From: Tubulanus polymorphus | Lineage: Eukaryota > Animalia > Nemertea | Direction: 5' to 3' | NCBI RefSeq assembly: GCF_964204645.1 | Contig: NC_134026.1 | Location: forward strand, 1,573,950-1,637,949 | Length of the DNA: 64,000 nt | Shown: positions 1-62,258 of the stretch, piece by piece | How positions within the stretch are numbered: position 1 is the stretch's first letter | How the letters are laid out: every line of letters begins with the position of its first letter | Position numbers and translations under genes: made by a program | The notes under the pieces: generated by a model | The model's input: the letters and a program-made list of their open reading frames with translations, nothing else | Told to the model about the DNA's origin: nothing | Database searches by the model: none

Positions 1-2895
<2,895 letters not shown>

Positions 2896-7900: not shown

Positions 7901-8021
7901 CATCAAAAGTACGTGAATGATCTTATTTATTTCTGAAGAAAAACAAAAGTTTCCAAGAAGTTTGACAAAGACAAACGTTTCGAATTTTCCACAAAAAAAT
8001 CCTACTAATTAGTCTCTACTA

Positions 8022-8571: not shown

Positions 8572-8579
8572 CTAATGCT

Positions 8580-8938: not shown

Positions 8939-9064
8939 ATAAGGCATATAGCACATCTTTGTCACTTTTTTCATCCCACAGAATACCCACAAGTATGCCC
9001 TTGACCTTTGCCATTCGCAGATACACTATATTTGTTGATATTGTTTTCGACAGATTTCTCTAAG

Positions 9065-10740
9065 ATGAGTGGTGGAAAGATTGATATGAAAGTTGTCCTT
9101 CTCGGGAAGGAGTACGGAGGAAAAACAAGTCTCGTAGAGCGATATCTTCATGACAGATTTTGCGGTGACGTTCCGTATCAAAATGTTAGTATTGTATTCA
9201 CTCACCTCATTCTTATTATTAGAAATTATTGTGGAAAATTGAATTCTAATTCAGACATATAAGAAACCCACAATATCGACTAAAGAATTAGTTTCGCTGG
9301 CGTCTAGGATGGATTTATTTTATCCATCTTTAGAGATTTATCACGGAAAAATTTTTATAAAAGTTTAAAAAAAGCTTTTTATCATTGTGGGTTTCTAATA
9401 CAAGATTCCGATCCAATTCAGACAATTGGTGCTGCATTCGGTGCTAAGAAAATAATGGTCGATGGCAAAAATGTGACCATGGGGATTTGGGTAAGCAAAA
9501 AAAAGCCGTATGAAATTAACTTCTTTTTTAACTGAATTGAATCGATGAATGATATTTAATTGTTCGATGATGTTTTGTTGATAGGATACAGCTGGTAGCG
9601 AGCGTTATGAAGCTATGAGTAGGATATACTATAGAGGAGCGCGGGCAGCTGTCGTGTGTTATGATCTTACCGACGATACCAGTTTCGACCGAGCGAGATT
9701 CTGGGTAGAAGAATTAAAAAAGAATGAAGAGGTGAATTCACCAAGTTTTCAACAGTTGACCATTTTATATTCTATTTTCATATTTCAGACGAAACGTTCT
9801 GTTGTGGCGATGATACAATCTGAAATCTCCCTCACTGAGAATGAAAAATAAAGTCTGAATTGTTTCCTTGTGCTAATAGTTTATTATTCAATGTTTTGAC
9901 ATTATCCTAGTAATAATACTCTTCTTACGGATTGAGAATTTGAATAAAGTAACATTTATTTTTCATTCTTAGTATGGAATTTTATATGATATTTTACATC
10001 TAACATGTAACCTGATAAAATCAAAATGCATCAATTCACCCTGTAGGAACTGACCACTGTTATGTAGTTACTTCAAGCAAGATAAGATCAAATATTTTTG
10101 GTTATTTTTAGAATTGCCGGATATATCTATGTGGAACTAAAAAGGATTTGGTTGATGGAGTGAATAAGAAAAACCGAAAAGTAGATTATCACAATACAAC
10201 TGATTTTGCTGACGGTGAGTGAATAGAGCATCAAAAACATTTTGTCCGAGCAGAAATTTCAATTTCTGATTATCAAAACAAAGATAGTGATTTATCCATC
10301 TATATAAGATAATCTCTGCACTTCTCTTTATAAGGAAAAAGAGTTTGATTAATAAAATTCCTGATGTTTTGCTGTGCATTTTCTTTTTAGAAATCAATGC
10401 TTTGGTTTTTGAAACTTCAAGTAAAACATGCGAAAACGTCAGTAAGTGTAACCTATGATTTTAACTGAAAATTTCGTTCTCTATTGAATTTATAGTTTTG
10501 GTAAATTACAACTGTTTTATTTTTCAGGAGAGCTATTTTATCAAATTTGTAAAGATTTCATCGATGATTGTAAGAAATTACCCGAACAGCCATGTGAGTC
10601 TAGTTAAAACCGTTCTACTTATATCAAATGTCAATTCTTCAGGTTTTTTCATAGTTTTATTTCTCATATTTTCAGCTGATCCGACTAGATTTCAATTGAA
10701 TTCCTCGCCAAAGCACAAAACATGTCCATGCAACAGTTAG
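9065..10740 (+). CDS. RAB24: Ras-related protein Rab-24; 7 coding exons (approx. 9065-9184, 9422-9490, 9585-9731, 10112-10214, 10391-10441, 10528-10593, 10676-10740)
   Basis: [32 protein letters not shown]...YQN|TIGAAFGAK...GIW|[30 protein letters not shown]...|[13 protein letters not shown]...FETSSKT, ending KTCPCNS*. GKEYxGKT and DTAGSE (Ser in place of the catalytic Gln) are Rab24 hallmarks. Confidence 0.95.
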
Positions 10741-13562
10741 CTTCGATAGCAAATCATCGATTCGATGAAAATTGATAATTACTTTACTCGATTTTGTGAA
10801 CCGTATTTGTTCATTCAAATACGTTATTGTGAGCAAAAGCCAAAGCAGTTCAAACATTCTACTTCTGATCAAGAGTTTCGAATGATGCTGTAACATCATT
10901 GCTGTGATAAACTGATTTCGACTCTGATTCTGCTCGGGTCTGGTTGTTTATACATCACTGATATAGATTTCGGGATTCAAAATGATGATGTTACTAAATG
11001 TTTGATTGGAAAACGTGAATTGCGAGAGTGTCCTGACTAACAGTTTGGTATGAATGCGTGATTACGAGTACACCGGTACTTCTACAAACAGCGATGCTAT
11101 TTTGGCTTAGACTCTTCAGAAACAGAATTTCTTTTTTCAAATTGTAATTTGTAGGTTTTGTCGGGTGTGTCTGTTATATTTCTGTGTACATTATTTCATT
11201 TTTTTCGCATTTCGTTGTCGGACAGATAGTTCTTTTTTAATTTTCGAAACGCAGACCTCTGAAGTAATTAACGATGAAACTAGTCTTTCTTGAGGTTTGA
11301 TTTTATATGAAGATTGTTGAACATGTATGAACAATACATGTAGCACATGAATGTATATTTTGTAAATTTACTTCTAATTTTATAAAATTATTGGTGAAAC
11401 TGTTTCATGTATTGTATTAAAAATGTTTAAATGTGTGATGTTCACAGAACGTTCTGAGCAGTAAAAAATTATCCGTAAAACTGAAACTTACGACTTGTTT
11501 TCTGTTGTCGATTGGATGTTTTAATCTATTTTACAAAACCCGGTTTCAATCAAAAACTACAGAAATAGGTGATGAATTCTCCCTGATGCAAACACCTGGC
11601 AGCGTGGAAAATGTCGACCCAAGGAGTGCAAATACAGTCTTAAGTAAATTGAATTACAAATACCGTATCAAAGAAGGCTGCCTTCAAGGGCTATATACAG
11701 ACATCTCAAGTTGTCCCGATTGCATTTTGGGGTAGATGGCTATGTCTGGGCTGTAGATTCAGACTCCTCAGATGAGGAGCCACTCGGTTTCAGTTGTGTT
11801 AAATATAAGGACCCAAAAAATAGATGACATATGGGATGTGATGAGTTATCCAGGTGACATCACTGAGTTTCACCGACAAGTGGAATAAATAAAGGTTCCT
11901 CAGCTCTATAGATTTAACAAAAATATTTGAATACTTGATTGTTATTTTTATTTTAACCAGACAGTGAATTGTACAGAACTCGTACATTATTTCTACACAC
12001 AAATCTCCCATCTGTTTGGACCCACTAAAAACAATTAACAGTACAAAATAAACAAGCTTTAAAAAAACAAAAAAGCTAACAAAACACTCAAAATATCCAT
12101 CATAAATTGGTTATTACAATACTATTTATACAGGTAACAGTTAATATACCCTGTGCTATATACAGGATTGCATGATACATGCGCAATGAAATGCAGATAA
12201 TAGAGAAATGTTCTACACTTTTTGCACAGGAATTTATCTAACAAAGATAATAGACAATCTATCGTTTTCTATAATATTCATGTATCATATAAGTGTGTGT
12301 CAATGAAGAAAAAATACAGATTTAATTCAATCAAATCTAAAGAAGACTTAGATCACAGAAATTGAGAGCTGGTTTTGTTGGGAACGTAGATTTTGTTATA
12401 ACAAGTATTCAAACTGTTTTTTTTTTTATGTTACAACGATTAATTTTTTGCTTATAATTTACACGAAATATACCACACCTGTATCGAACACTAGGGCAGT
12501 TAGACAATAGCAGAAATCCACGAAAACTCTTACTACTAGACTTCAAAATGTATTGCTTTTTACTACTCGGACTTTTGATCAGAAACACAGATATGAATGC
12601 CCTAATATCCTACGAGGCAAAACGTTCTGTAACATAACATGAATCAATATAGTTTAGATATAGTGGTGTTTTATAACTGGTTTCTAATGCTAAGAACCTG
12701 TGCGTTTTAACCTAAACTTAATATACATGATCAAAAAAAGACAAAAAATAACTCATTCTGCATAGCAATACCATTCCTTATTTGATCAAATATCCATAAT
12801 GAAATGTATAATGAATTTCGTCAAAAACCACGTCAATGGAAGCAAATTGAAATAGTCATTGCCAGAAAATATTTTCAAAAGAAAACAGTTTGCTTCCATT
12901 ATATCCACCAATCATCAAACAATTTGTTACCGACCCCCACTGCACACAGACATAAGCTTAGGGGAACTTGACACAGGACATCGATCGGTTAAAGGGGAGC
13001 AAATCTCAAAATTTCCGTTAACGTACAATTCTTCGATATAAAATTTCACAGAACTTCAGGAGAATTATTTACAAAGGATCAGGTCGAAAGTGTAAAAAAT
13101 TGCATCCAGTTTTTTTAATGCTCCCTGAACAACAAGATCCAGGTGTGTTTTTGAATTATGAACCTGGTTAATAATGTTTACATCATTTACCACTTTTCAT
13201 GTTCAGTTGTGCGCCCTACACTCATGCATACTCAAGGAATGTATTTGTAATTAATATTCTGCGATTAACGAAATTCACATCACCGCCAAGGGAGATTCCA
13301 TTATCTCATAACCCCGAATAAGCCTTCAATTCCCAAGAATTAATCGTAAATTCAACATATCATATCAATAATCAATCAATATTAATAACAGTAATAAATC
13401 ATGTTACATAATTCTACAACTCATATCATCGAGAAATATAATACACACATATACATGTATTTTATAACATAGGCAAATAGATTTATATTCCATTCACAAT
13501 TCATTAAATATGATTACTATAATTTAAACGTATTTATATCATTATCATAAGATCACATAGCT

Positions 13563-13607
13563 TATATCTCTATATATATCTCTATATCTCTATATATATA
13601 TATATAT

Positions 13608-13676
<69 letters not shown>

Positions 13677-13681
13677 TATAT

Positions 13682-13722
<41 letters not shown>
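13563..13722. repeat. (TA)n microsatellite, probably within the long complexin 3' UTR
   Basis: Long TA run with occasional TC/GA interruptions. Confidence 0.95.
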
Positions 13723-13723
<1 letters not shown>

Positions 13724-15735
13724 TACCTTGATTAATAATAATACATTATAATCATTTACTAGATGTAAATAATTGATTTCTATTTATTCTCTTTTCGTGG
13801 CTGTATAATATACAGTAGAGAGATATTATGTTCATCAGCTCGGAGTTAAAAACTCCAAGATTTAAGATATGTACGAGTTCAAGTATTCCTGGAGGAGGTT
13901 TTTCCTATCTGCGAATACTGATTGATCGTCATCAGGAAAATGAATTATTTGAAACTCGATTCGCTAGAATAATGAACTATACTAATAACACCGACGAGAA
14001 GTCATCTCTCACTAAGTGAATAGTTGAGAAAATTTGTAACGTTGAAGAAGAAAATACTTCAATATGTATGCAGAATATGGCTCTTCGGAGAAAAGCAATT
14101 TACAATTTTCTTGCCTTTTAATACTTGAGAATATTAAAACAAACAAAAAAACGACCATTTAGTTTCTCTACCGAGAAGTCAAAAATCAATGATAGTGTAT
14201 TTTTGATAATACGTACTAACATCTGAATGCAGTTTCCTAAAACCAAATCTACCAATAGTAAGAATAGTAAGTTTTGCATTTGTAAAATGCTATCATTTGC
14301 TTCTTTTAAATCAATATATGAAGGCCTATATACTTTCTACTGGTGTCAGGTTCGGTAAGTTTCAACGTTTACAATGTTTTTGCGATCTGAATTTGTGCAA
14401 TCGATGAAGCATTTTTATTATTCGCATAATTTTGAATTGTTCCTCCTGGCGAAAGGCAGCACACTCATGATCATTATACGACACACTTGCCCAATAAAAC
14501 ACAATACTTGCATACATACAATCATTATCAATTTCAGAATCTAGTTATAAAACATACGTACATGTTATGCTAAAATAAGGCACTGTTTGTCATGTCATAT
14601 TCAAATTTATTCATCGATAAGTAGGAATTTAGGAAAAGGATACCAAACGCTTCCCTGTTACGGCCAAATATGGAGAGAATGTCCCACAAATCAAAAGATT
14701 AAGCTGAAGGTATATTTCTGTTCCACAAAACTCAATTTAAACTCTCCATCAAATTTGAAATTAAAAGGTTCAGGTTTAGAAACATTTAAGACTCGAATAT
14801 CCTTATTGAAATGATGGCCTTAAAGAGAAACATGATTAGCTGTTTAGTGGGCAAGGCTGCATGCAAGCTTTACTTATGAATGTATCCACAACACAGAATG
14901 AGAGCTCTGATTCACTGTGGATAAATCACATTGTATACCAGGAGAACACATTTAGATGTTGGTTTTACACATTTATTCAAGAGAATTTACTCGGAAAGCG
15001 GGAACCATGCACAATAATCGGAAATCAGATAGGGAAAAACTACTGAAGAAACAATTTGCATAATCTGTCTAGGCTCCTCTGGTTTTTAGTTCGCGATGGA
15101 AAATATTTCTATGTATAAATTAACAAACACCGGTGGGTAAATTTGGTTTCAAGTTCATTGAAAACAAGGTTCAACAATGAAATAATCTCACAATACATAA
15201 ACGCTCTATTAACACATTTTAACATGATTATATACCGTAAATCTAGCAAAAAATCGCAAAATTTCCACAATTGAATAGAAACTCTTGATCATTCGATTAC
15301 AGTAACAATTCTACTAAGATTTAGAACGGAAAAACTGTCAACATTTTCTAGATTATATTCATCTTGACAGATATGTGCACATAGATAACTTGATTAAGAT
15401 TGATGTTATGAAAACATGCTATCAAACTATATATATTTGAATTTCACTCATTTCGTGCCGGAGTTCTCTATTCGATTGTAAATATAAATGAATGATATAT
15501 GACTGTAATTTTTAAAAAGCGAAGTTGCAAACTTGCTGGGCGTTGGCAGGCATGCTGTTGTAGCGATTCTTATTCAAATGTATATATATTCAAGGTAAAT
15601 TCAAAACAGTACATAATTCCACGTATGAGAGAGAGAAAAAGACAGATAGATAGAGGAGCCCAGCACCAAGACCCACCATGCACTGGATGGGACAATGATG
15701 TATGGAATAGACACAGGCAGGTTCTAGGAAGAGCT

Positions 15736-28830
<13,095 letters not shown>

Positions 28831-35685: not shown

Positions 35686-36147
35686 AACGAAGATCGCGCC
35701 GGTCGACAAAGATCGGGCCGGTCGACGAAGATCGCGCCGGTAGACGAAGATCGCGCCGGTAGACGAAGATCGCGCGGGTAGACGAAGATCGCACCGGTAG
35801 ACGAAGATCGCGCCGGTAGACGAAGATCGCGCCGGTAGACGAAGATCGCGCCGGTAGACGAAGATCTCGCCGGTAGACGAAGATCGCGCCGGTAGACGAA
35901 GATCACGCCGGTAGACGAAGATCTCGCCGGTAGACGAAGATCGCGCCGGTAGACGAAGATCGCGCCGGTAGACGAAGATCGCGCCGGTAGACGAAGATCG
36001 CGCCGGTAGACGAAGATCGCGCCGGTAGACGAAGATCGCACCGGTAGACGAAGATCGCCCCGGTAGACGAAGATCGCGCCGGTAGACGAAGATCGCGCCG
36101 GTAGACGAAGATCGCGCCGGTAGACGAAGATCACGCCGGTAGACGAA
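35686..36147. repeat. 19-bp CpG-rich minisatellite, about 24 copies
   Basis: Unit GTAGACGAAGATCGCGCCG, highly homogeneous and degenerating toward 35686. Confidence 0.95.
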
Positions 36148-44710: not shown

Positions 44711-47700
44711 ATGTATGGAGAAAACGTCGAGAATATTCCACCAGAAACGTTTAAAGTACCAACCGTTCCAAACATCCAAACACCGCCATCATCAGTAGAG
44801 AGCTCAATTCTAAAACATTCTACTAAAGATAACCTCATAGCTTTCTCACCAGCTCCTAAACACTTGAAGGTATGCCACAGTTTTTCAAAAGTCGGTTAAA
44901 ATCGACCATCAGTGACCATCAAAACTTCACTATTTGCAGACAAAGCAGTTTAACAGTCCTGAATTGAGATAAATTCATTCCAACTCTGAATTGTGAAACT
45001 GGGTCCCGAGTTACTTTAACCAACTTTTAAGCGACTATCCCTCGCGTGATTCTAATGTTATGTGATAGAGAATGTATTCTCCGGAAACCATGTCTATACG
45101 GTTGAAATTTCGGATAATTTTCAGGTCCATTTTTTGACGCCGAAGCAAAATTCCGTGAGACGATATTCGCCGGAAAAACCTGCGTCGGAATTATCGACGA
45201 TAGATTCACCGGATTGGTATAATTTCATCCGTGAGATCGACGATCAAGAGAAGTGGTGCGAACGCACGGAAGTAGTTACAAAACGGGATCATACTGAAAA
45301 CGTTGTTATTGCTCAATCAGTAATTCAAGAGATTATTGATAATTTACCTTTAAGGTATTATTTTACGATTATTTGAAGCTTTTATTATAAAATCTCAACC
45401 TAATCGGCAAAACCAACAGTTGATGATTTAACAATTTATTTTCTGACAGTTTCAAAGTTTTGACTAAACTTCATAATCAGAGAAATGAAAATAACACAAT
45501 ACACTGTACTGATATACAGCAATTTAAAAATGTAGATATTACTAAGGAAGGAAACTGTTATATCTTCAACTATAGGTTTTGCTCATTAACTTGGAAACAC
45601 TAAGATTATCGTAATAACAGTCTACCTGTCAAAGCTCAACTAGTACTAAGACTACATTATGTTATATCAGAAAATCTATTATTATGATTATAATTAGAAG
45701 CATGTATCTCCAAAGTTTTGGTTTATTTTCAGAGATTCAGCGAATAAAACCGGTCGTTTAAGTGATTTGAGTAACGACAATTGTGACACAACAATGGCCG
45801 ACGATGACGAAATCATTCCGCCGAAAGCTTCGTATAATTTCAACTTCGACGACATCGATTCGATCGATCCGTTCACGTCGAGTAAAGGTTTAGCTAATTC
45901 TCCGCCGGCGTCGTCTGCCGCGATAATCGAGAATCCGTTCCAGACGAAATCGAAGGTGTCGTCATCGCCACCGCCGGACGCCGGGTTTCACGACGATAAT
46001 ATAAATCCGTTCGCGAGCAGAAGACAATTACCGAACTCGCCGCCGCCGCCGACGATGAAGGGTGATATTACGAGCGAAGAAATGTCGAATTCAAACGTTG
46101 AGAATTCTTCGTCGTCCTCGTTGAAAGGTTTTCAAAATGTAACCGATATAAACGATAATGAGAACGGTAATAAAAACGGAGCCGCAGCCGGAATGGATAC
46201 GAGTTGCACCGGTTCGGATTTATCAGTGAAATCTGACGACAGTAAAGCCAGTTCTACCGGATCTGAGTAAGTATCGTTAACACGATAATCTGAGGCAATC
46301 GGTGGCAATCTGTCTACTGTACTGACATTTTATTGGACTTGGTACAGGGTGGCCACGTACCTGGAAATCAGGGAATTTTGTATAAAGAAAAAAGTGAAAA
46401 ATCAGGGATAAATCGGGGAAATTTCATTGCCAGGAGATTGCTAGAATTGATTGGATTCTTAGCAGATCAAGTCAGGGAAAACAACGTGCAGTCAGGGAAA
46501 AGTCAAATCAGGCCATCCTGTTTTATGTTCATACCAGTGCATGGTATATTATTCTTGTCTGTTATGCATGGGATTATTATTTTGATATTACGGAAATAAT
46601 GTAGTCCACATTTAGGCTAAAAAATCTGATACCTTGTTTCTCCTAATTGGCCAATAAACGACAATAAAAATTAGTAATCAGTTCATTTCTAAAGCTGCCG
46701 GTCTATTATGGTTAGCTTGATCATGATTGCAGAGGGTAGATAGGCGGCCGGATGGTTAAACTTTTAAGCTCAGCAGATGGAGAAACGAGATATCAATTTT
46801 TTTTAAGCCTTAGCATAGATGTTTTTCAGGGAGCAATGATCATGTAGTAGGTCATTTTGTATTATTAGGTTCTAGTGATTCTTTTTAATTTGTATCAACA
46901 TTTCACTCGATGTCTCATATTTGTGGTGCCGTGTTTTTTGCATTGTAGAAAAGTTGTCAAAAAGAAATCACCACCGAAAAAGAAGGGCCCTCCGAAGAGA
47001 TTCCTACAAGCAAATAAGGTGATTATTGATTATCGGACACAACTGAAAAAAATAATACTGGAAATAAGATGCCATGGTACATGACATAGACAGGGTTCTT
47101 AAAGATCAGGGAATTTCGACTCTATTTCTTGAAAGTCGGGGAATTTGTATTTTTGGTTCCTTGTTGTTCTTATTGGTGATGAGCATTACAAGAAATAACC
47201 AGGGAAATTATCCATCAAAGGTCAGAGTAATATCAGGGGATTTTGGATTCCCAAAAACTAAATGATTCCTTGTTTCTCCTAATCGACTGGGTCACTTTAG
47301 TAAACTGAATTGCGAATTTGACCCGGCCTGAATAAATTATATTGCTAATCAGGCCGGGTCAACTTTTAAGCTCAGCAGAAATGAGAAGGTGTCAATTGTC
47401 AGTTTCAGCCTAATCTGTTAAATCCCTTCATAGACGTTTGAATATTAATTTATGTGGAATTATTTCAGAATTTTCTCGCTGCGAATCAAGCAAACGACGA
47501 TGTCATCATATTCGATCCGAAGTCGAAGCGTTCTTCGGCCGCGGCATCTGATCGAATGGAAACGTCGAGTACGGCATCGGTTGCGTCCGATGCCGCGTCG
47601 GAGACCGGTGAATTACCGAGCTGTACCGCGGCGTCGACCGTCGCGAAGGAGATCGTTTGCGACGATTTCGACGCGTTGCTACGACCGACTAAAGACGTAC

Positions 47701-50700
47701 AAATAGCCTCGATGACCGAGTTCGATACAGCTGGCATTTCCGTGTTCTCCAGTACAGTGATGAGTCAGGAGGGATTGGGATCTTTTTCCGAAGACGAATT
47801 CAAGTCTGCGACGGAAGGTAAGCATCGTAATATGTGAACGGACCCCGTGCTGCACCAGCTATCCTGATCCTGCTAGATGATGCGTGTATCAATAGGACAA
47901 ATCAGTTTTGAGGAATTTTCATCTATTAGCCTTGCACCTTAGAAATAAGACAAATCATGTCTCTTCAAAGACTCGCGTTCAATGTTTATTGCGCAATTGT
48001 TATCTGTTATATGTACGTATTGAATTAAAAAAATCATTGATAGATTTTGATTGAATCTGAGAAGAAATCCAGGCGTCACTTTGAGCATGTACCTGGTAGA
48101 TCCTCGCTTGCCTCACACAGAATCCTCAACTGCCACAGTCAACCGTAGAGTCCTCATTGAAGTGAATTAAATTCTTGCAATCGCGGTCGTTCGATGTTGT
48201 TACAAAGGTAGAAATTATTAGTAGCAGCTATCTGGTGCAAAATGCTTCCTGGTTGTGTGAGTGTCATGTTTGTGTGTGCTGGTTCTCTTTCAATTGTTCA
48301 GTCATGGTTTGTTGATTATTTGATGGCAATATTTCATGAAATCAAATCACTATCTATTATAGCCTTACGTAGTGTGTTTGCTGTTGATGTGTCTACTCAA
48401 CTCTTAGGCAGTTACTGTCTACGAATATCAAACCAGGTCAACTGCCTACGAATTCCACGAAAAACAAATATCATTAACGCTTTAAAAGGGATATATGTAT
48501 GAATCATATATAAATACTAGTTATGTATGGTAGTTGTCTCCGTTGTGAGGGCATCATTAGGATTGTAATGAGATTAAATAAATGGATTATCTCCGTGGAT
48601 TATCTCGATATGTAGAAGAGACAGGTGCTGTTTCGTACTGATGTCCGATATATTTATACATCGATAACCGACAGCTGTGAAAACTCTTGTGCCCCTTCGT
48701 TAGTTTTTTACGTGTTATCAATGGCGGTCACAGTTTTAAGCTGGTTTTCTTCGCTGATCTATCCTTCATTGCTCACGTCTATAGTAGCCGTGTTGGTCGT
48801 ATTAGGAATCAATGCTGTGAAATGGATTTCAAAAGGTACGTAGGCGATTTTATAAAAATAGATACGACATTGAACTGAGCTGATGAGTGATCTCATAGAA
48901 GGGGGTTGTGGGCGTACAAGGATATGCCATTAGTTTAGTTGTTTGGTAGTTTACTCGATGATATGATAGGCTTCAGAAGTTTTCTAGTTCATGATCATTT
49001 GTCAGTCTTTAGTTTCTGATTTGAACTAAAGGTGGCGGTCGGTGTTGCGTATGATTACCACCAGTTGAGTTGTTTTGATGGCGTCAATGCTCGAGTGCAT
49101 TATTGTATAAGTCCGTGACACGATTGTATTGATTTTCTGTTGAAGAATATCAATGAGTTTTGTTTTCTGAAATGACTGATATTTATTTGTACATGATTGA
49201 TACTGTCGTTGTGACATTGTATCGGAAATCATCAGCCTGTGACTCGAAGCAGTTTCAACGGTCTACCGCTTCTAAGTAGTATTATTGTCCATGGTTTGAA
49301 TTTCACTCAATTTCTCATGTTGTCATTGTACCCATGCCAGTGTTACTGTACTTGTGAAGTGTTATTAGCGAACCTTTTTGAGAAACACAAATTCATGGCT
49401 TTGATAACAAGTAAGTCATTTGACCGCTGAAAGAAGTTTCATGTTATCACCGTTGATAAAACACTATATCCTTGTTGTGACGATAATATACATAGAATCC
49501 CACAACGATATGAAACGAAAAACAAAGTCCAAAAATGTTGTCTAGAGCCAGTAGTTGATTCAACGTTTTGACTATATTCTAATAGTATTCCTAGTATTAA
49601 TATTAGTGGTATATCGGTATAAACTACTAACCCTAGGATACATTTCCAGACATATTGTCTTTCGATACAATTGTGGGATTCTTTCTATACTAGGTTAGAT
49701 ATATCTACCTTTCCCTGTCTTGTTCAAATTTTCATCTGAAGGGATCCCATTCTTAGGTCAGACTTCAGGCGCTATGTGGCGCTAGTGTTATTATGGTTAG
49801 GTTAGTTAAACCTATATTCGAACATATAAACTGTAGTTGCTGTATAGTAGCCGTTGAAATAGATGAATGTCGATTGTCTGTTTGTTATTCTCATTGACGA
49901 TGCAGAAACTGTCATCTCTCCGATCAGAGAATGCCTGAATATCTATCGTTAGGCGTTTAGTTAAAATTCTGGCGTCAGTAAGATATGTTTGATAGCGCTG
50001 GGCTGCGTGGAGTAGCTGCCGTACTCTGATTGGTATTCTATCGAGATAAACCCGATCTAATCTGATATCGTGTTGTAAACGTTCTCCGGCGAGGATGATA
50101 AAGAAATTTTTCTCACGTAGAAAGAACATTCTGCCCGACAACAAAGCAATAAGTGATAATTCAGTGTTTTTATCAGTTGTTGCATTGCGAAATCATTAAT
50201 AATCTCTACAAGCGAAGGGGACTCGTCAGACCATTTGTGTTCACGCAGTAACTTTGTTTATAGCTTCAATTGAGAACAATTTTTTATGTGCATTTATTTT
50301 TTTATTGAAGTTCCCGGCGAGAAAAAAAGGTAAAGATCGAAATGATATCGGATTGTGATCGCAGTTCTACGGATCAAGGAATTTCGAATTTACCATTTCT
50401 TACACGGACAATCAGGGAAACTTGACTCTTTCCTTGAAAATCAGGGAATTTGAATTGTGATGACTTGTACTTGCCGGTGATGAGTGGCACAAGGATCCTC
50501 TTGATAAGAAACTTCCCCTGCTCTGAGGATATCTTAATTTAATCAGGGACTTTTGGTCTTGTGTTAGGGAAATATCTGAGAATATTGGATTCTCTGATCC
50601 ATAAGAAGCGTAGATGTAAAGTTTCTCTGGCATAAAGATCGAAATGAAAGCTGATTATAATCCACAGCGTTTGGTAGTTATAATTCTCTAGAGTGGATGT

Positions 50701-50757
50701 TGTATGTTGTACATTGTCGGGTGTTTAACCACTGTGTGTTGAGATCGTTGGACTGGT

Positions 50758-50825
<68 letters not shown>

Positions 50826-53800
50826 CGCTCTCTGTCTCGTTGTTGCGGTTAATGCGCGATGATCGTTGAAACTACTCGCGGAATCGAACCTTGTTTAGAT
50901 GGATACATCCCTCACGGTGGTGACAACGATGAAACGTCATCTCTACGTTTGATAACGGTTCGCCCCCCTGCGTCTCGTCCTGCGGCGATCTGTAGAATGG
51001 ATTTACGCGGTTTCTGCGACTGTTTACTGTCATCAACGTGTATGATTTTGATGGTTCTATCGTTTATGTCGCCGGTTTTACTGTATATGATAATCGTACT
51101 GGTACGGTGGGCGTAGTAACGATGATAAACACCGGCTATTGTTCGGTGAGGCCCGCGCCGTGCCGCTCTCGTTTCACAGGTCGTCCTCGCTCGTTCCGGT
51201 TTCAAGCAATTGTGGATAACGCGCGGTTGAAAGGAAAGACGCGAGACGCGCCGATGAAGTCCACCCAGCCCTGATATCGTGATATCGTCGAGTTTTATTC
51301 GATTTTTATGCGTCTCCTCTCGAGTGTTTACAGCATCATTAGTTCGTTCGTGTAGTTATTCCCCGACGGCCGTCTTCGTTTCATCGAAATGAAAAATTTA
51401 TGCATTCGCACTTTTTGTTTCTGTAGATAGAGTTTAATTACGTGTATTTATTTTCATAAAATGATTCTTCAGTTTTTCGTTAACTTTTTTGACGAAACGA
51501 TCGAATCTATTCGAGAGAATTGATTTAAAAAGATTCAATTCGTTATTATCAAAATCCACGGAAACTGATTGCGATCGATCTACGCGGCTTGACAAGCGGA
51601 AAGTACGCGTGGTCCTCGTGATTGCGTGATCGGTGAATCACCCGTGATCAGATTGATGTGAATCGTTGAATTGATCGGCGGACAGTGTTTAATCAGTGTT
51701 GTATTCTCAGTGAAGATAAAGCGATGGATTTTCATGCGTTCTGCGACTGTTTGTTATCTTCTACTTGTATGATATTGATGGTTCTATCGTTCATGTCCCC
51801 GGTTTTGTTATATATGATTATTGTGCTCGTTCGATGGGGTTGAGACGACGATCTCCGCGCGTTTATATCAAACAGGTGAATATAATAAATACATCGAGTT
51901 CTCATTTCCGATCTAGAATCGACCAAGCGCTTCGAGTCTGCGCTTAATTGGTCCGTTTCATTTTTTAACAGACCGGTTTAAACCGATCCAGATCCATTCT
52001 AAATTTTAGAATCGACAATTTCTTAATGTATGAATAAAAAGTCGTCAGTGTTTAATCTTGGATCGGTGATGAAAGCGGATTTAAAAACAAAGTGTCAACG
52101 CACAGCATTGATTTGGTCTGTTCTAGATCGATTATTAAATTCAGGTACGGGCCGAATCGGAATGGACTAATTACCGAATCTGAATCTGACTTGTAAGTGT
52201 TGTTTCATGCTTTTTTTTCAAGGAACTGTTGTCCTTTATATTTAGAAGCTGGCTTTTGAGCTTCTTTGTACAACTGGATTGGTGTTTATCCGATCAAATC
52301 TGTACATCAGTTATGATTGTGGCATTTGTTTCTTAATCCAGTCTTGATTGCGATTTCATATTTCAAATGCTGAAATTGTAAAATATGTAGTTTGTTAGTT
52401 CAGGTAAATCAGGTTTGACCAGTCCAATTAGATCTCATTTCCCACTGAGAAGATGAATCCCGGTGTTTCAAAATTCATAATTCACATTAATGTCAGGATA
52501 CAATAATAGGCATCTACCGTTTGGACAGATACGTCTCTGTGTATGGATAGCTAGTGATATTTGGTATTGCGTATGTCAGACAAAGTGACGTTATTCAGGA
52601 AATCATTCTGTCACCGAATGAGTTCGATACAAATAGTCATCGTAATGAGAATGTGGAGTCACGCGGCCGAGCATTATTACTGATCACCAAATCAAATATA
52701 GACGCTTCACTAAGTACTGTTTACGTATGCATGGGGAAAAATATATACCGCGCATAATTCCCCGGGCTAATTCACTTAGCATCGCCTTCATCGGTCAGCA
52801 GCACATTCATCGGTCAGTCATCTAGCAGCACATTCACTGGTCAGTCATTTAGCAGCAGGTTCACTGGTCAGTCATCTAGCAGCACATTCACTGGTCAGTC
52901 ATTTAGCAGCACGTTCACTGGTCAGTCATTTAGCAGCACGTTCACTGGTCAGTCATCTAGCAGCAGGTTCACTGGTCAGTCATTTAGCAGCACGTTCACT
53001 GGTCAGTCATCTAGCAGCACGTTCAATGGTCAGTCATCTAGCAGCACGTTCACTGGTCAGTCATTTAGCAGCACGTTCACTGGTCAGTCATCTAGCAGCA
53101 CGTTCACTGGTCAGTCATTTAGCAGCACGTTCACTGGTCAGTCATCTAGCAGCAGGTTCACTGGTCAGTCATCTAGCAGCACGTTCACTGGTCAGTCATT
53201 TAGCAGCACGTTCACTGGTCAGTCATCTAGCAGCAGGTTCACTGGTCAGTCATTTAGCAGCACATTCACTGGTCAGTCATCTAGCAGCACGTTCAATGGT
53301 CAGTCATCTAGCAGCACGTTCACTGGTCAGTCATTTAGCAGCACATTCACTGGTCAGTCATTTAGCAGCACGTTCACTGGTCAGTCATTTAGCAGCACGT
53401 TCACTGGTCAGTCATTTAGCAGCAAGTTCACTGGTCAGTCATCTAGCAGCACTTTCACATTGGTGAAAAGTGCAGTTAAAGTCCTACCTGAATTGGTCCT
53501 GTCCATTTTAGAATAGAAGACAAACAAAGAATTCTGATCCAGGTTTATTCAACAATTTTGAAATTATCATGTATGGATAGTGCAGGTCTGGTTTGGTTCA
53601 TTCTAAATTGGTCCATTCCTGATGCGGCCCGAATTAGAACATACTAACATCATGTTCTTTACTATTTCATCATCAATTGAAAGGAATGCACAGAATCAGT
53701 ATATTGATGATAGGGACATGTGAACAGTGCCTGTATAGGCTGTACGATCGCTGGGACTTCAGACTCCTTAAGAGTTACAGTGAGGAATTGTGTGAACGTG

Positions 53801-56800
53801 GTTCATGATTATAGGGCTTTATTCTAATTGTAGTGTTATGAAATGGGGTATTTTACATAGATAGTCAAAAATATATCTTATTATTATATGTAAAATACCC
53901 CATTATGAACTTGCAGGAGCCTCCAGTGTCTGGTATATTCATCGCTCATTCCATATACTAGTAGTTAGTTAATAAGGCAAAATAAAGAGCGGCAGTTCAC
54001 AGTAAACGCACCTCCGTGTGATGATTGGCGTTGATTGAATGAGGAAATGAAACAATTATTAAGAATACATCGCGGTGTTGGTCGGGTTTGCTGGTGATGT
54101 ATTCTCGCTCAACATTACCGCTCATCTATACTCTGCCTGATACAATGTATTGTCAGAGAGAGACACAGAAAGACAGAGAGTTGTGCAATTCAATATTTTG
54201 ATTAATGATGATGTTAAATCCACCAGTTGTGGCGATGCTCGATTGATTTTATTTTTCTCGTCGCCGCGCGTTACATTACTCGAAGGGGATACGCGCTTAT
54301 GAAAATTTATTCATTCGATTTCGAAAACTGATAAAACTGTCGGTGGTCGGGTTTTTATTTCAAATTAACTTTGTCTAATCAAATCTATAGCAGTGTGAGT
54401 CTGAGTGTGTGTCTTCATCCGCGGTGTTTTTATAAAGCATGCATTGCATGCGGTATTTCTCGAAAAAATATTTATTAGCTATCATCAGGGGGCTGTGTTC
54501 GTTGATTAGGACATTAAGCCTGTCACAAAATATCTCATTTGGACGAAGCAAACATCGCTGTCAAGTATTCCCTCGACTATTGTAGTGAAATGCTGCCCGG
54601 TAATTTGCTTTTAAGTAATAAAGTGTCCTTCAATAGCTGAATAACTGCTGACCGTCGATTAAGTATCGGAAGCTTTTATATCGTGAATCAGTTGTGAATT
54701 CTCGCACAAGTGTCTATTTGTATGAATTCAAATCAACACTTCACTCACATCAGATGAATTGGTTGTTTGTCCGGTGTAACAGTGTCGCTGTATCAGACAT
54801 TGAATCTAGAGGATCCGATGAAACTGGTGGCGTCTTGGAGTTATCAGGTATCAGAGAATCGCTATGGTTACTGTCTCAGGGTATTGCCACGTTAACTAGA
54901 CCTGTATCAGGGTATCATCGTGGTGTTTATCAGGGAATCGTCATAGTAACTGGCTGTATCAGGGAATTGTCATGGTAACTGGCTGTGTCGGGGATCAAAT
55001 CTGCCATCATTGAGTTAGATGATTATTGTATTACTCGTTTTCGTAGAATATAAAAATTATCGGAGTGTGATCAATAATTATCTGATCTGAGTGTGATCAA
55101 TGATTTATTCCGGTTTATCCAACACGCGAATGATATTTACTATCATCATCATCATCATCGTCATCGTCATCGCTGGCAATCGTGACTGAAATATAGCGAG
55201 TCGAGTGAGTGAATGATTCCTCGTTGTCGGTCTCTAAATGAAATATTGTATCGTCGACTCTTGTTACATTCGATAGGCTCATCAGCTGAGTAGAGGCAAG
55301 AGGCGCGCACAAGAGACGTTTTGATTGCTGAGGTACGCGAATCATCGAACGTCTTCCGTTTAACTCCTCGTCTATATCCTCGTGTATATCCTCGTGTGTA
55401 TGTGTGCAGAATTGCGACTTGTTCATGTGCAGGTGATTGATGATAGAAATAAAGCTGTGTTCGGATTCGTTGACAGTCGACAAACAGACGACTGTAGCAC
55501 GCGAGCACGCAGACACTGAAATGGATTCAGTATCAGGAGACAATGTGTCTATATCTACAGGTGACTCAACCCGGTTTAATCCGTGAATGATGACTGAACT
55601 ATTTTATCCCGACGGAATCATAAACATCATAAACATCCCGTGGCTAATTTACGCTCTCTCTGTCGATAGTTGAGCCGAAAGCCGGTCGTTTGCGATGCCG
55701 TATTTTTCTAATGATTGTAGCTACACGGCGACGTTTCTCGTCGACGGACATCGTTGTCGATCTCGGCGGTCGTTTCGGATTTGACGCTGTTTCGATACCG
55801 ACGTCGGTTCGACGACGGCGGGTAATAGACAATCATCGCTAACTTTTGGCCCGGTCGACTCGTCCCTTCTGGGACTAGTTCGCTGCTGCTCGAGGATAAC
55901 AGCTCCGAAGATCCGGAAAGCGTGGAACTGTTCGAGTTTAGTTCATGCGGTGATATGCCGACAGGATCGGACTCGGTTCACGTGTTAGTCCCTAGTCGGA
56001 CTAGCGATTGTTTATACGGACGGTATAGTCCGTATATCTGTTTGCGTAGTAGTTTACAGTTAACATGTACCTGTGTGTTAGTGTTATCGTTCATGGCTCC
56101 TATAATTCTCTATATTACGTTGGCTTTCCTCAACTGGCCGTAGGTAAGCCGGTGTGTATGTTTGTCACTTTTATCTTTCGTCAATCTTGATTGTCTTTTG
56201 TAAAAACTGTTACCCGTACATAATGCGGTTATCTAATGCTGAGTAGTCGATGTACATTACGTAAGTCATCAATATTGGTGTTTCAAAATAACGATAACAA
56301 TTGCGTGTATAAGCATTTATTATGTAATTTGATAAATGACTCTCTATTTCCTAATTATTGAATTTTCATGTTTTTTAACCCTTTCAGTGCGTCTACACTG
56401 CAGTGCAGTGTATTAGTCGGTGATGGACTAGTACTCCGCACTGCGTTGATATAATTAATAATGCTTAATTACTCATCACCGAAAGGGTTTTAATAGCAAG
56501 GTTATATATGTAATATAATTTATATATTCATTCTTTCATTTTGCAGTGTTCAGCGATCCGTCAGCATGGGATATGCTAGAGAAGTTTGGTGAGGGTAATT
56601 CTGATGTACGTATATTCGGTATTCAGTGTGAGTTCGCTGTGTTCGGTGTGATTTCCATCCATCGAAATAAAAACCCACAATACGAAATAACATGATTTTC
56701 ATCGCTCGAAATGTTGCCTGTATTTATGCGTTGATACAGAAAATGCCGTTGATGAATTCGACTTATGGATAAAGCCATGCGTTGAAATGTCTCGGGAATG

Positions 56801-59800
56801 ACGACTATTAACTCGCATTAGGGATTTCTGTAATTCAATTGTAGACAAATGATCGTGATGAAATTGCGTTATTGATTGCGCTTTATACGAGTCTGCGGGA
56901 TTAGCTCGCATCGAAAATTTATGAAGACGGCCAAATCATATTTACTTGAGACTGCCGATTTATTCTAAAGTTTATACAAAGCTGAAATTTGATATTCAAT
57001 CGGTTGTTAAATTACTGTGTTCCTCATGTCATAATCTTCAGTAGAAACACAAATATCATTGCTTTGTATTTGAATTTGTTGTCCAAAATCACGGTTATGC
57101 CACTCAGACTGCGATGTTTATTTTGTGGGTTTGTTAATCGTGTCTTATTGTGTTTTTTTGGGGTTATTTTTCTTTGCAGAATCCCGATTCCGCTCTTACC
57201 CGGCAATCGCTGTACGTAAAGTTCGATCCATTAGTCCAGGGAGATGATAAAAGTCCCGGCAATGTCGGCGTTCTTCCAAATCCAAGAGTACAAGGTAAAG
57301 TCCCTCGTGTAACCTTGTGGATAACTTAGATTCTTAAAGAATTGGCCAAATATCGAAAGGAAACATTTTGCTCCTTACGTCAAACATTTTATGTTTGTAA
57401 TAATGATCACATTCGTTTGCATATAGACTCCATATAAACTACTAGACTGTCTTGTTAAAGAGAACATAATAAGCATGATGAATTTTATCAATTTTACTAA
57501 GAGAGAATCTCTGAAAAGTGACGAAATTTACATAAGGGAAAGATAACGACAAAGGCCTACTAACGATAGGCCTAGTAAAAATTGGCAATGAATATTGAAT
57601 GATGTGTTACTTTCAGGACTGGCGAAGAAGACAAGTAACAGCCAACTGGCTTCACTTGCAGAAAAGTAAGTATCATTAAGGGACGTAACTGTGGTCATAG
57701 TCTTAAACTATTAGTTTTATGGTCTCGTAGCTCCTCATTTATCTAATTGGATAACAGTTGTTGATCGTATCAGTTGTCCGAGTGGTCAGTTATATCTGAG
57801 AGGGGGGCCGACCTTGCCGGTTATATATCGACTTCATTTACACAGTATGACGACGACGCAATGGTATATATCTCATCTCGTTTCAGCCCGAATGCATCGG
57901 TTTATAGCGAGGATCTTCTATTGATGAATACACCACCTCCTAATAAACCACTATCGCGTCTTAAACAACTGCAAATGGGTCAATCGAGACTCGCCCCTCA
58001 ACAGCCGGCCAGCGATCTAGATAATATTTTGACGTGTAGTCCAAAACTCGATGAAGAGGTATGTATATTAAAGCGTCATACATGTATTCGCAACAAAAAT
58101 CAATTTTATCTTCCCCGAAACTATCCGCTGACTGCACACGCGCGCACAGAGTACCGGTATATGGTAGGAATAATAGTAGGAATAAATCTCTGAATCTGGC
58201 GTGTGAATAGTGCTTGTTTTATTTCACATGACTGCGTGTTGTCATATAAAATCCTCTTATGTATGTCTGACTTATATATTCCCCTAGATCATTATTACAC
58301 GGAGATTATCATCCGTCCGTCTGTCTGTAAATCATAGAGAAGATTTCTATTACTTTTCTAAAACACAAAACTCATATGAGAATCATTAAGTTTTATGCTG
58401 TTTTTAGTGTTTTATCTGGTAGAAAAATTCAGGCTTCAAGTCGCAGTTTTGTCTTAACTGCTGAAGGAAAACATATTTTGCTTATTCGATCTGATTTATT
58501 TCACCTGACCGTCATAACATAAACTTATTTCATTCTAAATCGTTGATGTTACCGTCAATGTTGTTTTCTTCAACGGAACCACCGGGGCACTCTATATACA
58601 TATTTGTTTGTTTTTACCTCATGTGCATCAGACATGCCATTCTGATTTAGCGATCGTAGAACCGCCCGAGTATTCAACTCGCGCCGCCGCAGCCGCCGAC
58701 GAGTGGGTCGAACAGATCAACAGTTTTTCCGAGCTCGAGGATTCCGCCGCTTTGTCGCAAGATTCGCTCGAGTGTATATCGTGTACGTGGGGCACGGAGA
58801 CCGGCCGACCGGATAGTCCTCTACAATTCGACCACGACGAAGTCGTACATATAGACGTCTGTGATAGCATTAGCGAATTGAGAGATGACACAGATGTAGG
58901 TTTACGCTCTACTAACGGCATTCATCCTCGTAATTCTAGACGTTTTGATAAACAGCCGACTACGATTGGTTCACATCGTTCTTATACGCGTCAAACCCAT
59001 TAATCATACATAACGTTTGTAGTAAAATAGCTACGATCAGACGTTGAACGCGTTATATACAAATTCAAAAGATTTAAGTAGAAATTTATGTATCAAGAAT
59101 TAAGATCAGAAGTGATAACGTTTCTGACTTTCACTAGAGACCTGTGTCGGGTCCGAAATGTTGTGCGTATCTTCTCATTTTAATTCTTGATAATCGATTT
59201 TTGATTTCAATCTTTTACAATGTATACAGTGGATTTTAACCGTATCATTGATTATTTATATTTATCGCTAGCTTGAATTCGACGAGAATAATGTTTTGGG
59301 GTTGATATTCCTTCCTCGTGCTTAATGGCTGAAAAATGTGCTCCAAAAGCAGACGGCTGTTTCACTGGATTTTATGTTCACACCTCTGGCATGGTTGTTA
59401 GTTCTTCGACTGCATGGTTTCCATATTCGTCTGACCCGCTCTCTCTACCTCTACCTCTTATTTCGAGCTACGTTCATTATTTTTGTATGTCTGATGCTGT
59501 CGTCGTTTTCGTTTTCTTTCACATTCATTTTGTTGAAATCATGGTCTCGGAATATCAAATGTTCTTACGTGTAGCGTGTTTAAACAATCGGTTCCATTTC
59601 CTCAGATGTGTAAAATTTTACTCTCTAACGCGTTTCTGTCAACTACGAGATATCTCGTAGTTCCATTTCAGCCATCATTGTCACTATGAGTTGTTGTAGG
59701 TGATCCTTCTTATTCACGGTTTGATATGAGCTCTCTGGTAATCGGAATGACACATCTCCCGATTGACTGGCAATGTGAATAAAATCTGCTTCATTTTCAA

Positions 59801-62258
59801 TACTCATTGATCAACTTATGAAAATGGCTGACTATGAGATAACTTGTAGTAGTGACTGGGAAGAAAGATGGTGGCAGTGAACGTGTTGAACAGAGTTAAA
59901 CCCGTTCATATCAATTTGACCCTCAAGTCAAACTGCCGAACTGATCTCACGATTCTTACGCAACATTTCTCAAACATCACAACCCATCTGTTGATTCGAT
60001 AGGTTAATTTAGAAATGTTTCATCGTGGTATGACATTGATTTAGTCATTACAACTCCATAACGGCACATGTTGTAATAATAAATCAAGAATCTGCGTGAA
60101 ATCGAATTAGACAATGCCTGAATTAGTTTCGTATATTCGTAACAAACTGAAATATTGTTGATCATATATTGATTATATGTATATATCTAACAGTGTTTAA
60201 ACTAGTACATGTATACTCAGGGATCAGTTATACTGATTTATTCCTAAAACCTGGAAATCTATCTATGTGGTATGTTTTTCTATCATTTATACATCTAAAG
60301 GGGTACATTGTAAACTACTTTGAATTAATCTTTATGTATAAATGTAAACACTCATTGCTTTAGTTTGTAAGGGTTCTAATCAAATATTTTAAGTTTCATT
60401 TCATTTATCATAGTTTTGATTTGCAATCCCTTTTATATTCTCTCTATTAAATGCTTTGGTGTTATGTTAGTTAAAGGATGTTGTTAATTATTTGTGACTG
60501 GGTCAATCAATTCTGGTTTTCAGTGCTATGTGGAGGCCATTTATGAGTAAAATGTGTTTTTTCAAATGTCGCAATCAACAAAGCGTAAGATATCAGATTT
60601 TCTGAAATCCTTTTTTGGCCTGTCTTTGCTGCATTTTTGTAACAAGTATTTTCCAGGTGAAGTTCTAGTTTCATGGTACTTCTGTGTCAGTATTCTATTC
60701 CTGCCAAAATGCACAATGCTCTTCTGTGCCTTATGATAAAGAAAATTCACATCTTTCATCCACAACCATATCGCTGGGAACAAGTTATTATTTTTATTGA
60801 ACTATTCATAAATCATTGGATCATACAGAGTTGATAGTTGTCCGTGAAGTACATATTCACCACTAATAATCTTTATAAAGTTTACTTGTTTTGAATATTA
60901 CAGAACCAAACAGACAGTGGTCGTCCAGAGAGTGAGACGCCTTCTAAACATGATTCCGTCGAGCCATCGAGAGCGGGAACCGGTATTGTTGAGGTATGTA
61001 ACCCCGGTAACCAATAGTGGCTTCAATTGTGCGACCAAAATAGAGGAATTACTATCTAATATAACGTGTATGCTTCAGGTCTTGAAATACACAGAATCCG
61101 ACTTCAAAAAATTAAAGCAACAAATGGAGATGGACTTCCAAGCGCAGTTATTGGCTAAAGAACGTTCGTGCTACAAGAAAGTGCAAGATTTGCAGCAGGA
61201 AATTGCTAAACTTACTGAAGAAAATAAAGCATTGTCAGAATCAGTTGATAACATGACGTAAGTAGCTTTATTTCTATCGATAGACTTCGCTACCGAGTCG
61301 CCATCTACCGAGAAAAATGAGTAGCTTTAAAGTAAAATGTGTTTTCTTTTCGTTTTACAGAAAAGTGGTCGCTGAATATGAGAAAACTATATCCCAAGTT
61401 ATTGGTAAGTTAAGGGTAAATGATACGAGTTATCAGTTATGTCGTGTTTATAAGTCTAATAACTGTATTTTTTCAATAGCTGATAAAGAAACGGTCAGCG
61501 CTTCTTCGGCTGAATCAATGACAGAATTAATTCAGGAACGAAATCATCTGATGGAAAGTTTACAGTCGATGGAAAAAGCATTTTCAGATATGTTGAAACG
61601 ACACGACAGGTCGAAGGAGGTCGTTGAGAGTCAAAAGAAGGTCGGTTTATAATAACTCTCATTGTGTACTGGTTTCCCACCGCTGTTCGATGCGTTCCTA
61701 TTTCAAGTATCAATGTTTAATGTTTTTAGAATGAAGAACAACTGAAGAAATGTATTACTGATTATCAAGAGAAGATGAAGAAAGCAGAAACGAAATACCA
61801 GGCGCTTAAACGGCATGCTGAAGAGAAATTAGTAGCGTAAGTACAGAGCTTGTCGTTAATGGAAATTTGAGCATTTTTAACCGCATTTGGATGGATTTAC
61901 TAACCTCATCAGGTTCATAGATTAGTTTAAACAACGTTCTTTGCCTCAATATTTATGGCCTATCTGTGTATGTTGTTTTTAGGGCAAGTGAAGAAATAGA
62001 AAAAGTGACAAAAAGTAAAGATAACGAATTGACGCGGTTACAATTAGCCGTGAAGAAATCCGAGGTTCAAATTAAGAGCTTAGAAACAGCTGTCGCTCAG
62101 AAGGTAAATTCACCGTCTGCCGTGCGGCATCAAATACTGAGCTGTTTCAAGCGGACATATTTTTACTGTATTGCTTTCGATTTCAGACGAAAGAAAACGA
62201 AGAACTGACTTCAATCTGTGATGACTTGATTTCACAAGTAGGAGGTGGTGGAAGCTAG
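44711..62258 (+). CDS. TACC: Transforming acidic coiled-coil (TACC) family protein; exons approx. 44711-44869, 45125-45353, 45733-46266, 46949-47018, 47469-47817, 56547-56605, 57180-57294, 57617-57665, 57887-58058, (58632-58895), 60904-60993, 61079-61257, 61361-61404, 61480-61640, 61730-61836, 61983-62103, 62187-62258
   Basis: TACC3-like N-terminus ([12 protein letters not shown]...LK|VHFLTP); SDP-type repeats ([13 protein letters not shown]...SPP); the Aurora-A/clathrin segment EFKSATE|[15 protein letters not shown]...[15 protein letters not shown]; and a C-terminal TACC coiled coil ([53 protein letters not shown]). Intron phases agree where checked. Confidence 0.93.
48721..48835 (+). CDS. 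Candidate alternative first coding exon of TACC encoding a hydrophobic leader ([38 protein letters not shown])
   Basis: The ORF ends at donor AAAG|GTACGT in phase 1, matching the phase-1 acceptor at 56547 (giving ...[13 protein letters not shown]). Contains a long hydrophobic stretch. Confidence 0.5.
50761..50835. repeat. (CT)n microsatellite just upstream of micro-ORF copy 1
   Basis: About 30 CT units. Confidence 0.95.
50997..51116 (+). CDS. Hydrophobic micropeptide copy 1, 39 aa ([39 protein letters not shown]); may extend upstream to an in-frame ATG at 50859
   Basis: 35/39 aa identical to copy 2, with 16 synonymous and 0 non-synonymous codon differences over residues 6-38. Confidence 0.75.
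   Translation: MDLRGFCDCLLSSTCMILMVLSFMSPVLLYMIIVLVRWA
51724..51843 (+). CDS. Hydrophobic micropeptide copy 2, 39 aa ([39 protein letters not shown]); below the ORF-track cut-off
   Basis: Paralogue of copy 1; start and stop positions are conserved but the flanks are unrelated. Inr-like TCAGT at about 51693 and 51707; donor CAG|GTGAAT at 51875/51876. Confidence 0.78.
   Translation: MDFHAFCDCLLSSTCMILMVLSFMSPVLLYMIIVLVRWG
52790..53452. repeat. 27-bp minisatellite, about 24 copies, in the large TACC intron
   Basis: Unit GGTCAGTCAT(C/T)TAGCAGCAC(G/A)TTCACT. Confidence 0.96.
55955..56143 (+). CDS. Hydrophobic micropeptide copy 3, diverged, 62 aa from ATG 55955, ending ...[30 protein letters not shown]
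   Basis: Aligns without gaps to copies 1 and 2 (LxxTCxxxxVLSFMxPxxLYxxxxxxxWx*). Its TAG is followed immediately by a consensus donor GTAAGC at 56144. Confidence 0.65.
   Translation: MPTGSDSVHVLVPSRTSDCLYGRYSPYICLRSSLQLTCTCVLVLSFMAPIILYITLAFLNWP
56379..56487. mobile_element. piggyBac-like MITE
   Basis: TTAA|CCCTTTCAGTG ... CACCGAAAGGG|TTTTAA termini. Confidence 0.6.
58632..58895 (+). CDS. Candidate alternative TACC exon: 264-nt symmetric cassette, or a terminal exon to the stop at 59003
   Basis: Acceptor TTTTTACCTCATGTGCATCAG in phase 0 after KLDEE; GC-rich acidic open frame ([14 protein letters not shown]...ELRDDTD); donor GAT|GTAGGT in phase 0. Confidence 0.55.

Follow-up and report, generated by a model that had tools for sequence, protein, structure and literature searches.

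The closest described counterparts of the peptides considered here are microproteins made from upstream open reading frames (uORFs) of bicistronic messages, as in STREMI-SLC35A4, MIURF-MIEF1 and PYURF-PIGY, and also in ASDURF-ASNSD1 (PMC13303939). The STREMI ORF encodes a membrane microprotein and at the same time controls SLC35A4 downstream of it, and so is a precedent for both roles (PMC13303939). Two further groups bear comparison, namely the conserved peptide uORFs (CPuORFs) surveyed in animals (PMC7530721, PMC2276209) and the regulins phospholamban, sarcolipin, DWORF, myoregulin and sarcolamban (PMC8396278; 10.1101/2020.07.19.211243). The locus at issue is the TACC gene of the nemertean Tubulanus polymorphus, within a window of 64,000 nucleotides (contig NC_134026.1, positions 1,573,950 to 1,637,949, forward strand), where three short ORFs lie in one large intron. 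Judged by their codons, these micropeptide ORFs are a real, unannotated family of small genes under strong protein-level selection, and by analogy they would work most like bicistronic uORF microproteins such as STREMI.

What they share with the STREMI type is a small ORF under selection, placed upstream of a main ORF that is conserved. However the known examples, in the available account, reside in the reference transcript, one to a gene, and are widely conserved, and the bicistronic form is the main transcript of the gene, whereas TACC would carry several paralogues, which would lie on first exons internal to the gene, in minor isoforms that encode a truncated host protein downstream, the RefSeq long isoform skips the ORFs and there is no sequence match between the two. 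CPuORFs are typified by a low dN/dS, no fusion to the main ORF and a C-terminal part that is the best conserved. The TACC ORFs resemble them in a low dN/dS between paralogues, in not being fused in frame and in conservation that is strongest towards the C-terminus, but differ in that the conservation seen so far is between paralogues and not species and the repression is a prediction. As to a 5' leader position, the copy 2 contig breaks at a splice donor and would continue at a TACC acceptor, and nothing comparable is seen for copies 1 and 3. TACC is unnamed in the main texts of the two CPuORF surveys as far as available (PMC7530721, PMC2276209); the supplement of PMC7530721, outside the scope of this work, may bear on this.

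The resemblance to regulins is one of size, a single C-terminal hydrophobic helix and a short tail (by sequence only), with a proline inside the helix as in DWORF. In contrast to regulins, the proline lies 13 residues from the end (20 in DWORF), the WLL motif of sarcolipin and the sarcolambans is absent from all three copies, and the regulin polar residue (Asn34 of phospholamban, Asn11 of sarcolipin) has no Asn equivalent in copies 1 and 2, where the invariant Ser22 could stand in. The sarcolipin/phospholamban analogy proposed in a first-pass annotation of this DNA thus holds for size and layout, and membership is not supported, given the lack of any Pfam profile or PDB-sequence match and of the WLL motif. 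Literature searches on TACC with uORFs, micropeptides, transmembrane first exons or alternative promoters, and on nemertean micropeptides, returned nothing relevant, including in the available parts of PMC11088998 and PMC11963466, with published maps of TACC first exons outside their scope. An arrangement in which several selected micropeptide exons and a predicted membrane-anchor exon converge on one TACC splice site is not found in the literature searched.

A micropeptide family in the large TACC intron

The host gene is the RefSeq TACC of T. polymorphus (XP_074640771.1, 836 aa), the sole protein matched by the in-window query, which can be placed exon by exon on 44711-62255 and has Pfam matches PF25777 and PF05010 (the TACC_C and Aurora-A binding profiles are present). 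Its RefSeq model skips the micropeptide ORFs, which fall in an intron of 8.7 kb (47818-56546). The three same-strand ORFs reported in the first-pass annotation translate at their coordinates to 39, 39 and 62 aa plus stop. Copy 1 (50997..51116, +) has a strong start context (A at −3, G at +4) and a double stop, TAG TAA, and an in-frame ATG further upstream at 50859 would permit 85 aa. Copy 2 (51724..51843, +) likewise starts in a strong context (G at −3, G at +4) and stops with TGA. Copy 3 (55955..56143, +) is diverged, with a longer N-terminal part and an adequate start context, and is a true paralogue by its tblastn match within the window (E 3e-7; its raw score of 81 exceeds the highest from 500 local shuffles, 49).

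That the hydrophobic peptide is under purifying selection, as had been claimed, is supported by codon statistics, simulations and allelic variants. Across all 39 codons copies 1 and 2 differ at 21 synonymous and 4 non-synonymous places (pS 0.82, pN 0.044, binomial p 7e-11), 20 of the 25 differences being at third codon positions, and so the dN/dS comparison that the first-pass annotation had proposed gives a low value between paralogues. Over residues 6-38 the two peptides are identical as originally described, although 16 of the 33 codons differ (18 nt, all synonymous) and the stops are TAG and TGA. Four-fold sites differ at 8 of 13, near saturation, and the duplication is therefore old. Neutral simulations with 25 substitutions never gave four or fewer amino-acid changes with no stop (0/200,000), and in a six-frame comparison the called frame alone is both open and conserved. 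Of the 21 allelic differences listed, six are in copies 1 and 2, five of them synonymous; the other alters residue 4, a position that also differs between the two copies. Not one I/L/V exchange is found over the 33 residues. Such conservation, on the sequences compared, is tighter than a generic membrane anchor requires, and the lack of even a conservative exchange between copy 1 and copy 2 argues for a putative fixed binding surface. A small-gene family can thus be recognised from one genome, since the paralogues themselves carry the selection signal.

Outside the ORFs the likeness falls away. Ungapped blocks of 20 nt match at 12-18 positions within the ORF and at 3-11 in 12 flanking blocks, so that the claim of similarity ending at the start and stop codons is right for the unrelated flanks and needs amending at the 3' side, where blastn similarity extends some 10 nt beyond the stop. 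All three copies share C, S, T-C, V-L-S-F-M, P, L-Y and W, and align gap-free when counted from the stop, with the invariant P, L, Y and W falling within the final 14 residues, the N-termini free and the last residue different in each (A, G, P). Each peptide has one hydrophobic stretch (best 19-residue hydropathy 2.5-2.6) that ends 3-5 residues before the stop. CpG observed/expected is 1.7-2.0 around the three copies, with 2.1 in a coding exon and 0.9 in mid-intron, which is weak evidence. At their third letters the codons for L21 and S22 agree across the three copies (TATCGTT; 51057-51066, 51784-51793 and 56084-56093, +), possibly a nucleotide-level element.

A decayed fourth copy, overlooked in the first-pass annotation, is found at 52162..52257 (+) with in-frame stops at 52168 and 52243. 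It matches copy 3 by tblastn (E 7e-4; raw score 60 against a maximum of 52 in 500 local shuffles) and ranks weakly (E 0.27) in a profile search of the whole window. The birth and death of micropeptide copies is thus visible within 5 kb. Strong donors lie just upstream of the fourth copy (52145) and inside it (52193).

Transcripts and splicing

Contigs of the sequencing runs X1, X3, X4 and X5 were aligned to the window, X3 and X4 being from the same sample; those of X5 align nowhere on the ORFs, which does not count as evidence. X4 holds spliced RNA, because ten GT..AG joints occur along TACC. In the long isoform the upstream exon (47469..47817, +) contains F442 and ends at residue 447, and is followed by the common acceptor exon (56547..56605, +; residues 448-467), joined from 56605 to 57180 in X4. 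The remaining exons (57180..62258, +; ten GT..AG joints in X4) carry the kinase-site region and the C-terminal coiled coil (PF25777, PF05010). Met457 (56573, +) is the first in-frame start in exon 56547 and opens a TACC of 380 aa; an AUG at 56566 (+), 7 nt before it and out of frame, has a strong context and 8 codons. F442 and F449 align with F525 and L532 of TACC3, which belong to its Aurora-A docking motif (PMC5897774). The 380-aa TACC loses F442 and F449 and retains the Ser477 site and coiled coil, the shared splice site separating the Aurora-A docking residue from the phosphorylation site and coiled coil. If confirmed, this arrangement would link membrane peptides to non-mitotic TACC isoforms.

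The X4 contig of copy 2 aligns at 51427-51875, past the stop, and then has 28 unaligned letters. It breaks at a splice donor that closes the copy 2 first exon (51875..51881, +; last exonic base 51875, GT at 51876), whose score of 8.6 is within the range of TACC's own donors. As an X3 contig that carries identical alleles extends to 51913, the break is not a structural allele. Contigs are taken to be built from 31-letter words, and two X4 joints show a matching side of 30 letters; an overhang of 28 is expected where a contig runs into an acceptor that is also used by an exon whose last letters are AG, which fits six of the 11 TACC acceptors. No X4 joint for the overhang is listed inside 50550-56370, and the next known acceptor is 56547. 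The break at the donor, which is observed, fits splicing of the copy 2 exon into TACC exon 56547, the acceptor that we infer. The earlier proposal that the peptides are expressed from inside TACC, on an mRNA shared with truncated TACC, is thus supported by this one contig, for copy 2 only. A 13-nt insertion allele at 51678, upstream of copy 2, is present in X3 and X4.

In X4 the contigs of copies 1 and 2 overlap by 18 nt, which may mean that a single first exon holds both ORFs, or that the cover is background. Copy 3 has a strong donor (GT at 56144, score 9.6) directly after its stop, and X4 has no cover at 56010-56204, which is not counted as evidence. The donors of copies 2 and 3 lie 32 and 0 nt past the stop. 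Contig depths cannot rank TACC isoforms.

Exon 56547 requires phase 1. Donors after the stops of copies 1, 2 and 3 give phases 2, 2 and 0, no internal donor scores >4 in copies 2 or 3, the peptides are absent from the RefSeq TACC protein and the copy 2 contig reads through its stop codon. Since none of the copies can fuse in frame with this exon, the peptides would come from free ORFs upstream of the 380-aa TACC that starts at Met457.

A further internal first exon, here called exon B and also overlooked at first pass, probably lies at 48351-48835 (+). Its ATG at 48721 opens 38 hydrophobic codons (best 19-residue hydropathy 2.4) that run to a phase-1 donor (score 9.7), in frame with exon 56547. 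One X4 contig of depth 73.9 covers about 48351-48833, with none at 48328 or 48988. The joint from exon B to 56547 is deduced, and is not among the 15 of 216 X4 joints that were displayed. Exon B would give a short TACC with a hydrophobic, membrane-anchoring N-terminus. Homology of exon B to the peptides was not found (peptide profile score −1.6), nor does the peptide profile match in 121 TACC proteins; among the 120 listed short TACC proteins none has a hydrophobic N-terminus (best 19-residue mean 1.1) and neither exon B nor the peptide exons have a counterpart.

Proposed mechanism and rival explanations

We hold with about even confidence that the copies are three paralogous small genes for trans-acting membrane peptides, with repression of short TACC as a second effect. 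Transcription would start inside the TACC intron, the copies likely lying on alternative first exons, and the ORF exon would be spliced to 56547. Scanning ribosomes would initiate at the peptide AUG (the context is strong in copies 1 and 2), making the peptide the main product. The predicted products are free membrane peptides, each with a single, tail-anchored helix, whose target would be a membrane partner. A C-terminal hydrophobic helix emerges from the ribosome only once translation has terminated and enters the membrane as a tail anchor; here the helix would enter the membrane post-translationally, and the cysteines beside the membrane are possible lipidation sites. From stop to Met457 the gap is 58 nt for copy 2, 26 nt for copy 3 and 55 nt for copy 1 (donor uncertain). 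Whether ribosomes reinitiate depends on how long uORF translation takes and on the length of the gap (PMC7530721), and so these mRNAs should yield little short TACC: an ORF of 39-62 codons, a gap of 26-58 nt and the out-of-frame AUG would restrain the 380-aa TACC, a form without the Aurora-A docking residues and with the phosphorylation site and coiled coil. A four-copy complex prediction for copy 2 scored 0.02 and carries no weight either way.

Several points weigh against the trans-acting peptides. Their translation is predicted from sequence alone and the conservation is drawn from one species. Evidence of splicing comes from a single contig, in a single run of unrecorded type; its depth of 13.5 is similar to intronic cover in X4 (4-15), and its 28 letters, known by length only, are compatible with six of 11 acceptors. 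The copy 1 contig in X4 is unspliced from 50959 to 51444, crossing a weak candidate donor at 51146. Of the short TACC proteins of other animals, the three that start at the Met may come from contigs that were cut off. With ten exon junctions after the stops, the mRNA might be prone to nonsense-mediated decay, and conservation anchored on the stop and not the start would fit an arrest peptide too.

That last point belongs to a cis-acting alternative, somewhat unlikely in our estimate, in which the sequence of each uORF makes its own ribosome stall and so sets the level of short TACC, the peptide having no other task once released. The gap-free alignment from the stop, the invariant residues of the final 14 and the free N-termini all suit arrest, as does the in-frame Met457 downstream. 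The ribosome exit tunnel holds about as much peptide as is conserved here, and the conserved span is thus comparable to its capacity. C-terminal conservation is typical of many regulatory uORFs (PMC7530721). However the final residue varies in all three copies, stalling needs no hydrophobic helix of full membrane length, a long uORF in strong context represses without sequence constraint, and Met457 is Leu in all five other genomic loci that show the exon with the same splice sites. If confirmed, the family would offer a case in which to test if conserved uORF peptides work in cis or in trans. Distinctly unlikely is that the copies are independent nested micropeptide genes, with short transcripts that end in the intron and splicing into TACC as a minor side product. 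The unspliced copy 1 contig meets that of copy 2, so one exon may carry both, and neither flanks nor donor positions are conserved between copies, yet strong donors directly or shortly follow the stops of copies 2 and 3 and the copy 2 contig breaks at its donor.

That the ORFs are conserved as membrane anchors at the N-terminus of TACC isoforms, to which an internal donor or stop readthrough would join them, is largely refuted and very improbable. Exon B in the same intron has just such a design, copy 1 has GT sites at 51102 and 51107, and skipping of exon 56547 would let copy 3, given readthrough, join acceptor 57180 in frame. Set against these are the lack of internal donors above 4 in copies 2 and 3, post-stop phases other than the 1 needed, synonymous evolution right up to a stop that is kept by a different codon and doubled in copy 1, an X4 contig that passes through the copy 2 stop, and a peptide profile that matches neither exon B nor the 121 TACC proteins. 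Stop readthrough and selenocysteine as such were rejected, as the stops differ and copy 1 has two. A wider idea, improbable as it stands, makes the intron a promoter cassette that switches between soluble spindle TACC, exon B membrane-anchored TACC and free membrane peptides, the last from duplicated anchor exons freed by a stop codon and binding or competing with anchored TACC; if true, cassette peptides would control where microtubule ends attach to membranes. A neutral duplicate or a transposon-derived coding fragment is hardly credible. Real repeats do lie nearby (46268-47535, 56375-56427), but the selection statistics speak against this origin, X1 depth over copies 1 and 2 is 21 (the single-copy level, at 85% likeness) as against thousands at repeats, none of the 25 longest of 33 inverted-repeat pairs gives flanking terminal inverted repeats, and Pfam, viral contigs and the protein library hold no match. 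The dispersed transposon fragment that the first-pass annotation had considered is thus not what is found, given single-copy X1 depth, by which alone copies outside the window were judged, and unrelated flanks.

Searches for relatives

Homologues of the peptides were sought in collections with few animal small ORFs and without a second nemertean genome. At E up to 10, Pfam gave no family for copies 1 and 2 and one unrelated weak match for copy 3, and PDB sequences gave no match for the peptides. No real match came from a word search with the three-peptide alignment over proteins of 21-109 aa. HMMER over 1.84 billion representatives returned three matches, all tandem-repeat ORFs, and an exact look-up in a collection of 15 billion proteins found none of the three peptides. 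In the ESM Atlas copy 2 had no match, and the single match of copy 3, at 0.76, is below the usable mark. Pattern matches in metagenome (0/152) and viral (0/90) contigs were not confirmed, and Rfam over 47800-57300 gave no match. The earlier remark that the peptide was not recognised as any named family agrees with the absence of Pfam, PDB-sequence and library matches.

The first-pass annotation had also proposed looking in TACC introns of related species and in small-protein databases, and this yielded no homologue in 18 TACC loci or in the searched collections, no other nemertean being among them. In the 18 loci, from metagenome contigs, no match to the peptide profile occurs at E <0.01 in 3265 frames. 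Seven genomic TACC loci compared share no upstream ORF, the longest upstream stretches being 7.4, 6.9 and 4.7 kb, so that these introns may be covered only in part. Five of the genomic loci share the acceptor exon and its splice sites, have Leu for Met457 and show no similar upstream ORF in the covered part. As is proposed for T. polymorphus, short TACC proteins of other animals open at or just before exon 56547 (five of 120 listed: P0005, P0006, P0009, P0015, P0018), and on these sequences internal TACC starts at this exon may be widespread in animals. Short hydrophobic ORFs occur in or near TACC of other animals (L010 658-771, L018 1379-1504, L007 2883-3008 and 5678-5896), none with a profile match and all maybe due to chance in T-rich DNA.

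Other features of the window

Another TACC intron (58059-60903) contains an acidic open frame of 154 codons (58539-59000, +), possibly an alternative exon, with nothing significant in Pfam, and an open frame of 82 codons with hydrophobic stretches (59326-59571, +) and no Pfam match. Tandem arrays make long open frames at 52797-53458 (27 nt, 24.5 copies) and 35687-36147 (19 nt, 24.3 copies). High-copy dispersed repeats, with depth in the thousands, lie in TACC introns at 46268-47535, about 50460-50540 and 56375-56427. At 700-2900 (+) there is what we take to be an XPF-like nuclease, with no Pfam match on the one exon tested, and within 700-19400 Pfam identifies as neighbours an adaptor medium subunit (−), a Ras-family GTPase (+) and a synaphin/complexin (−).

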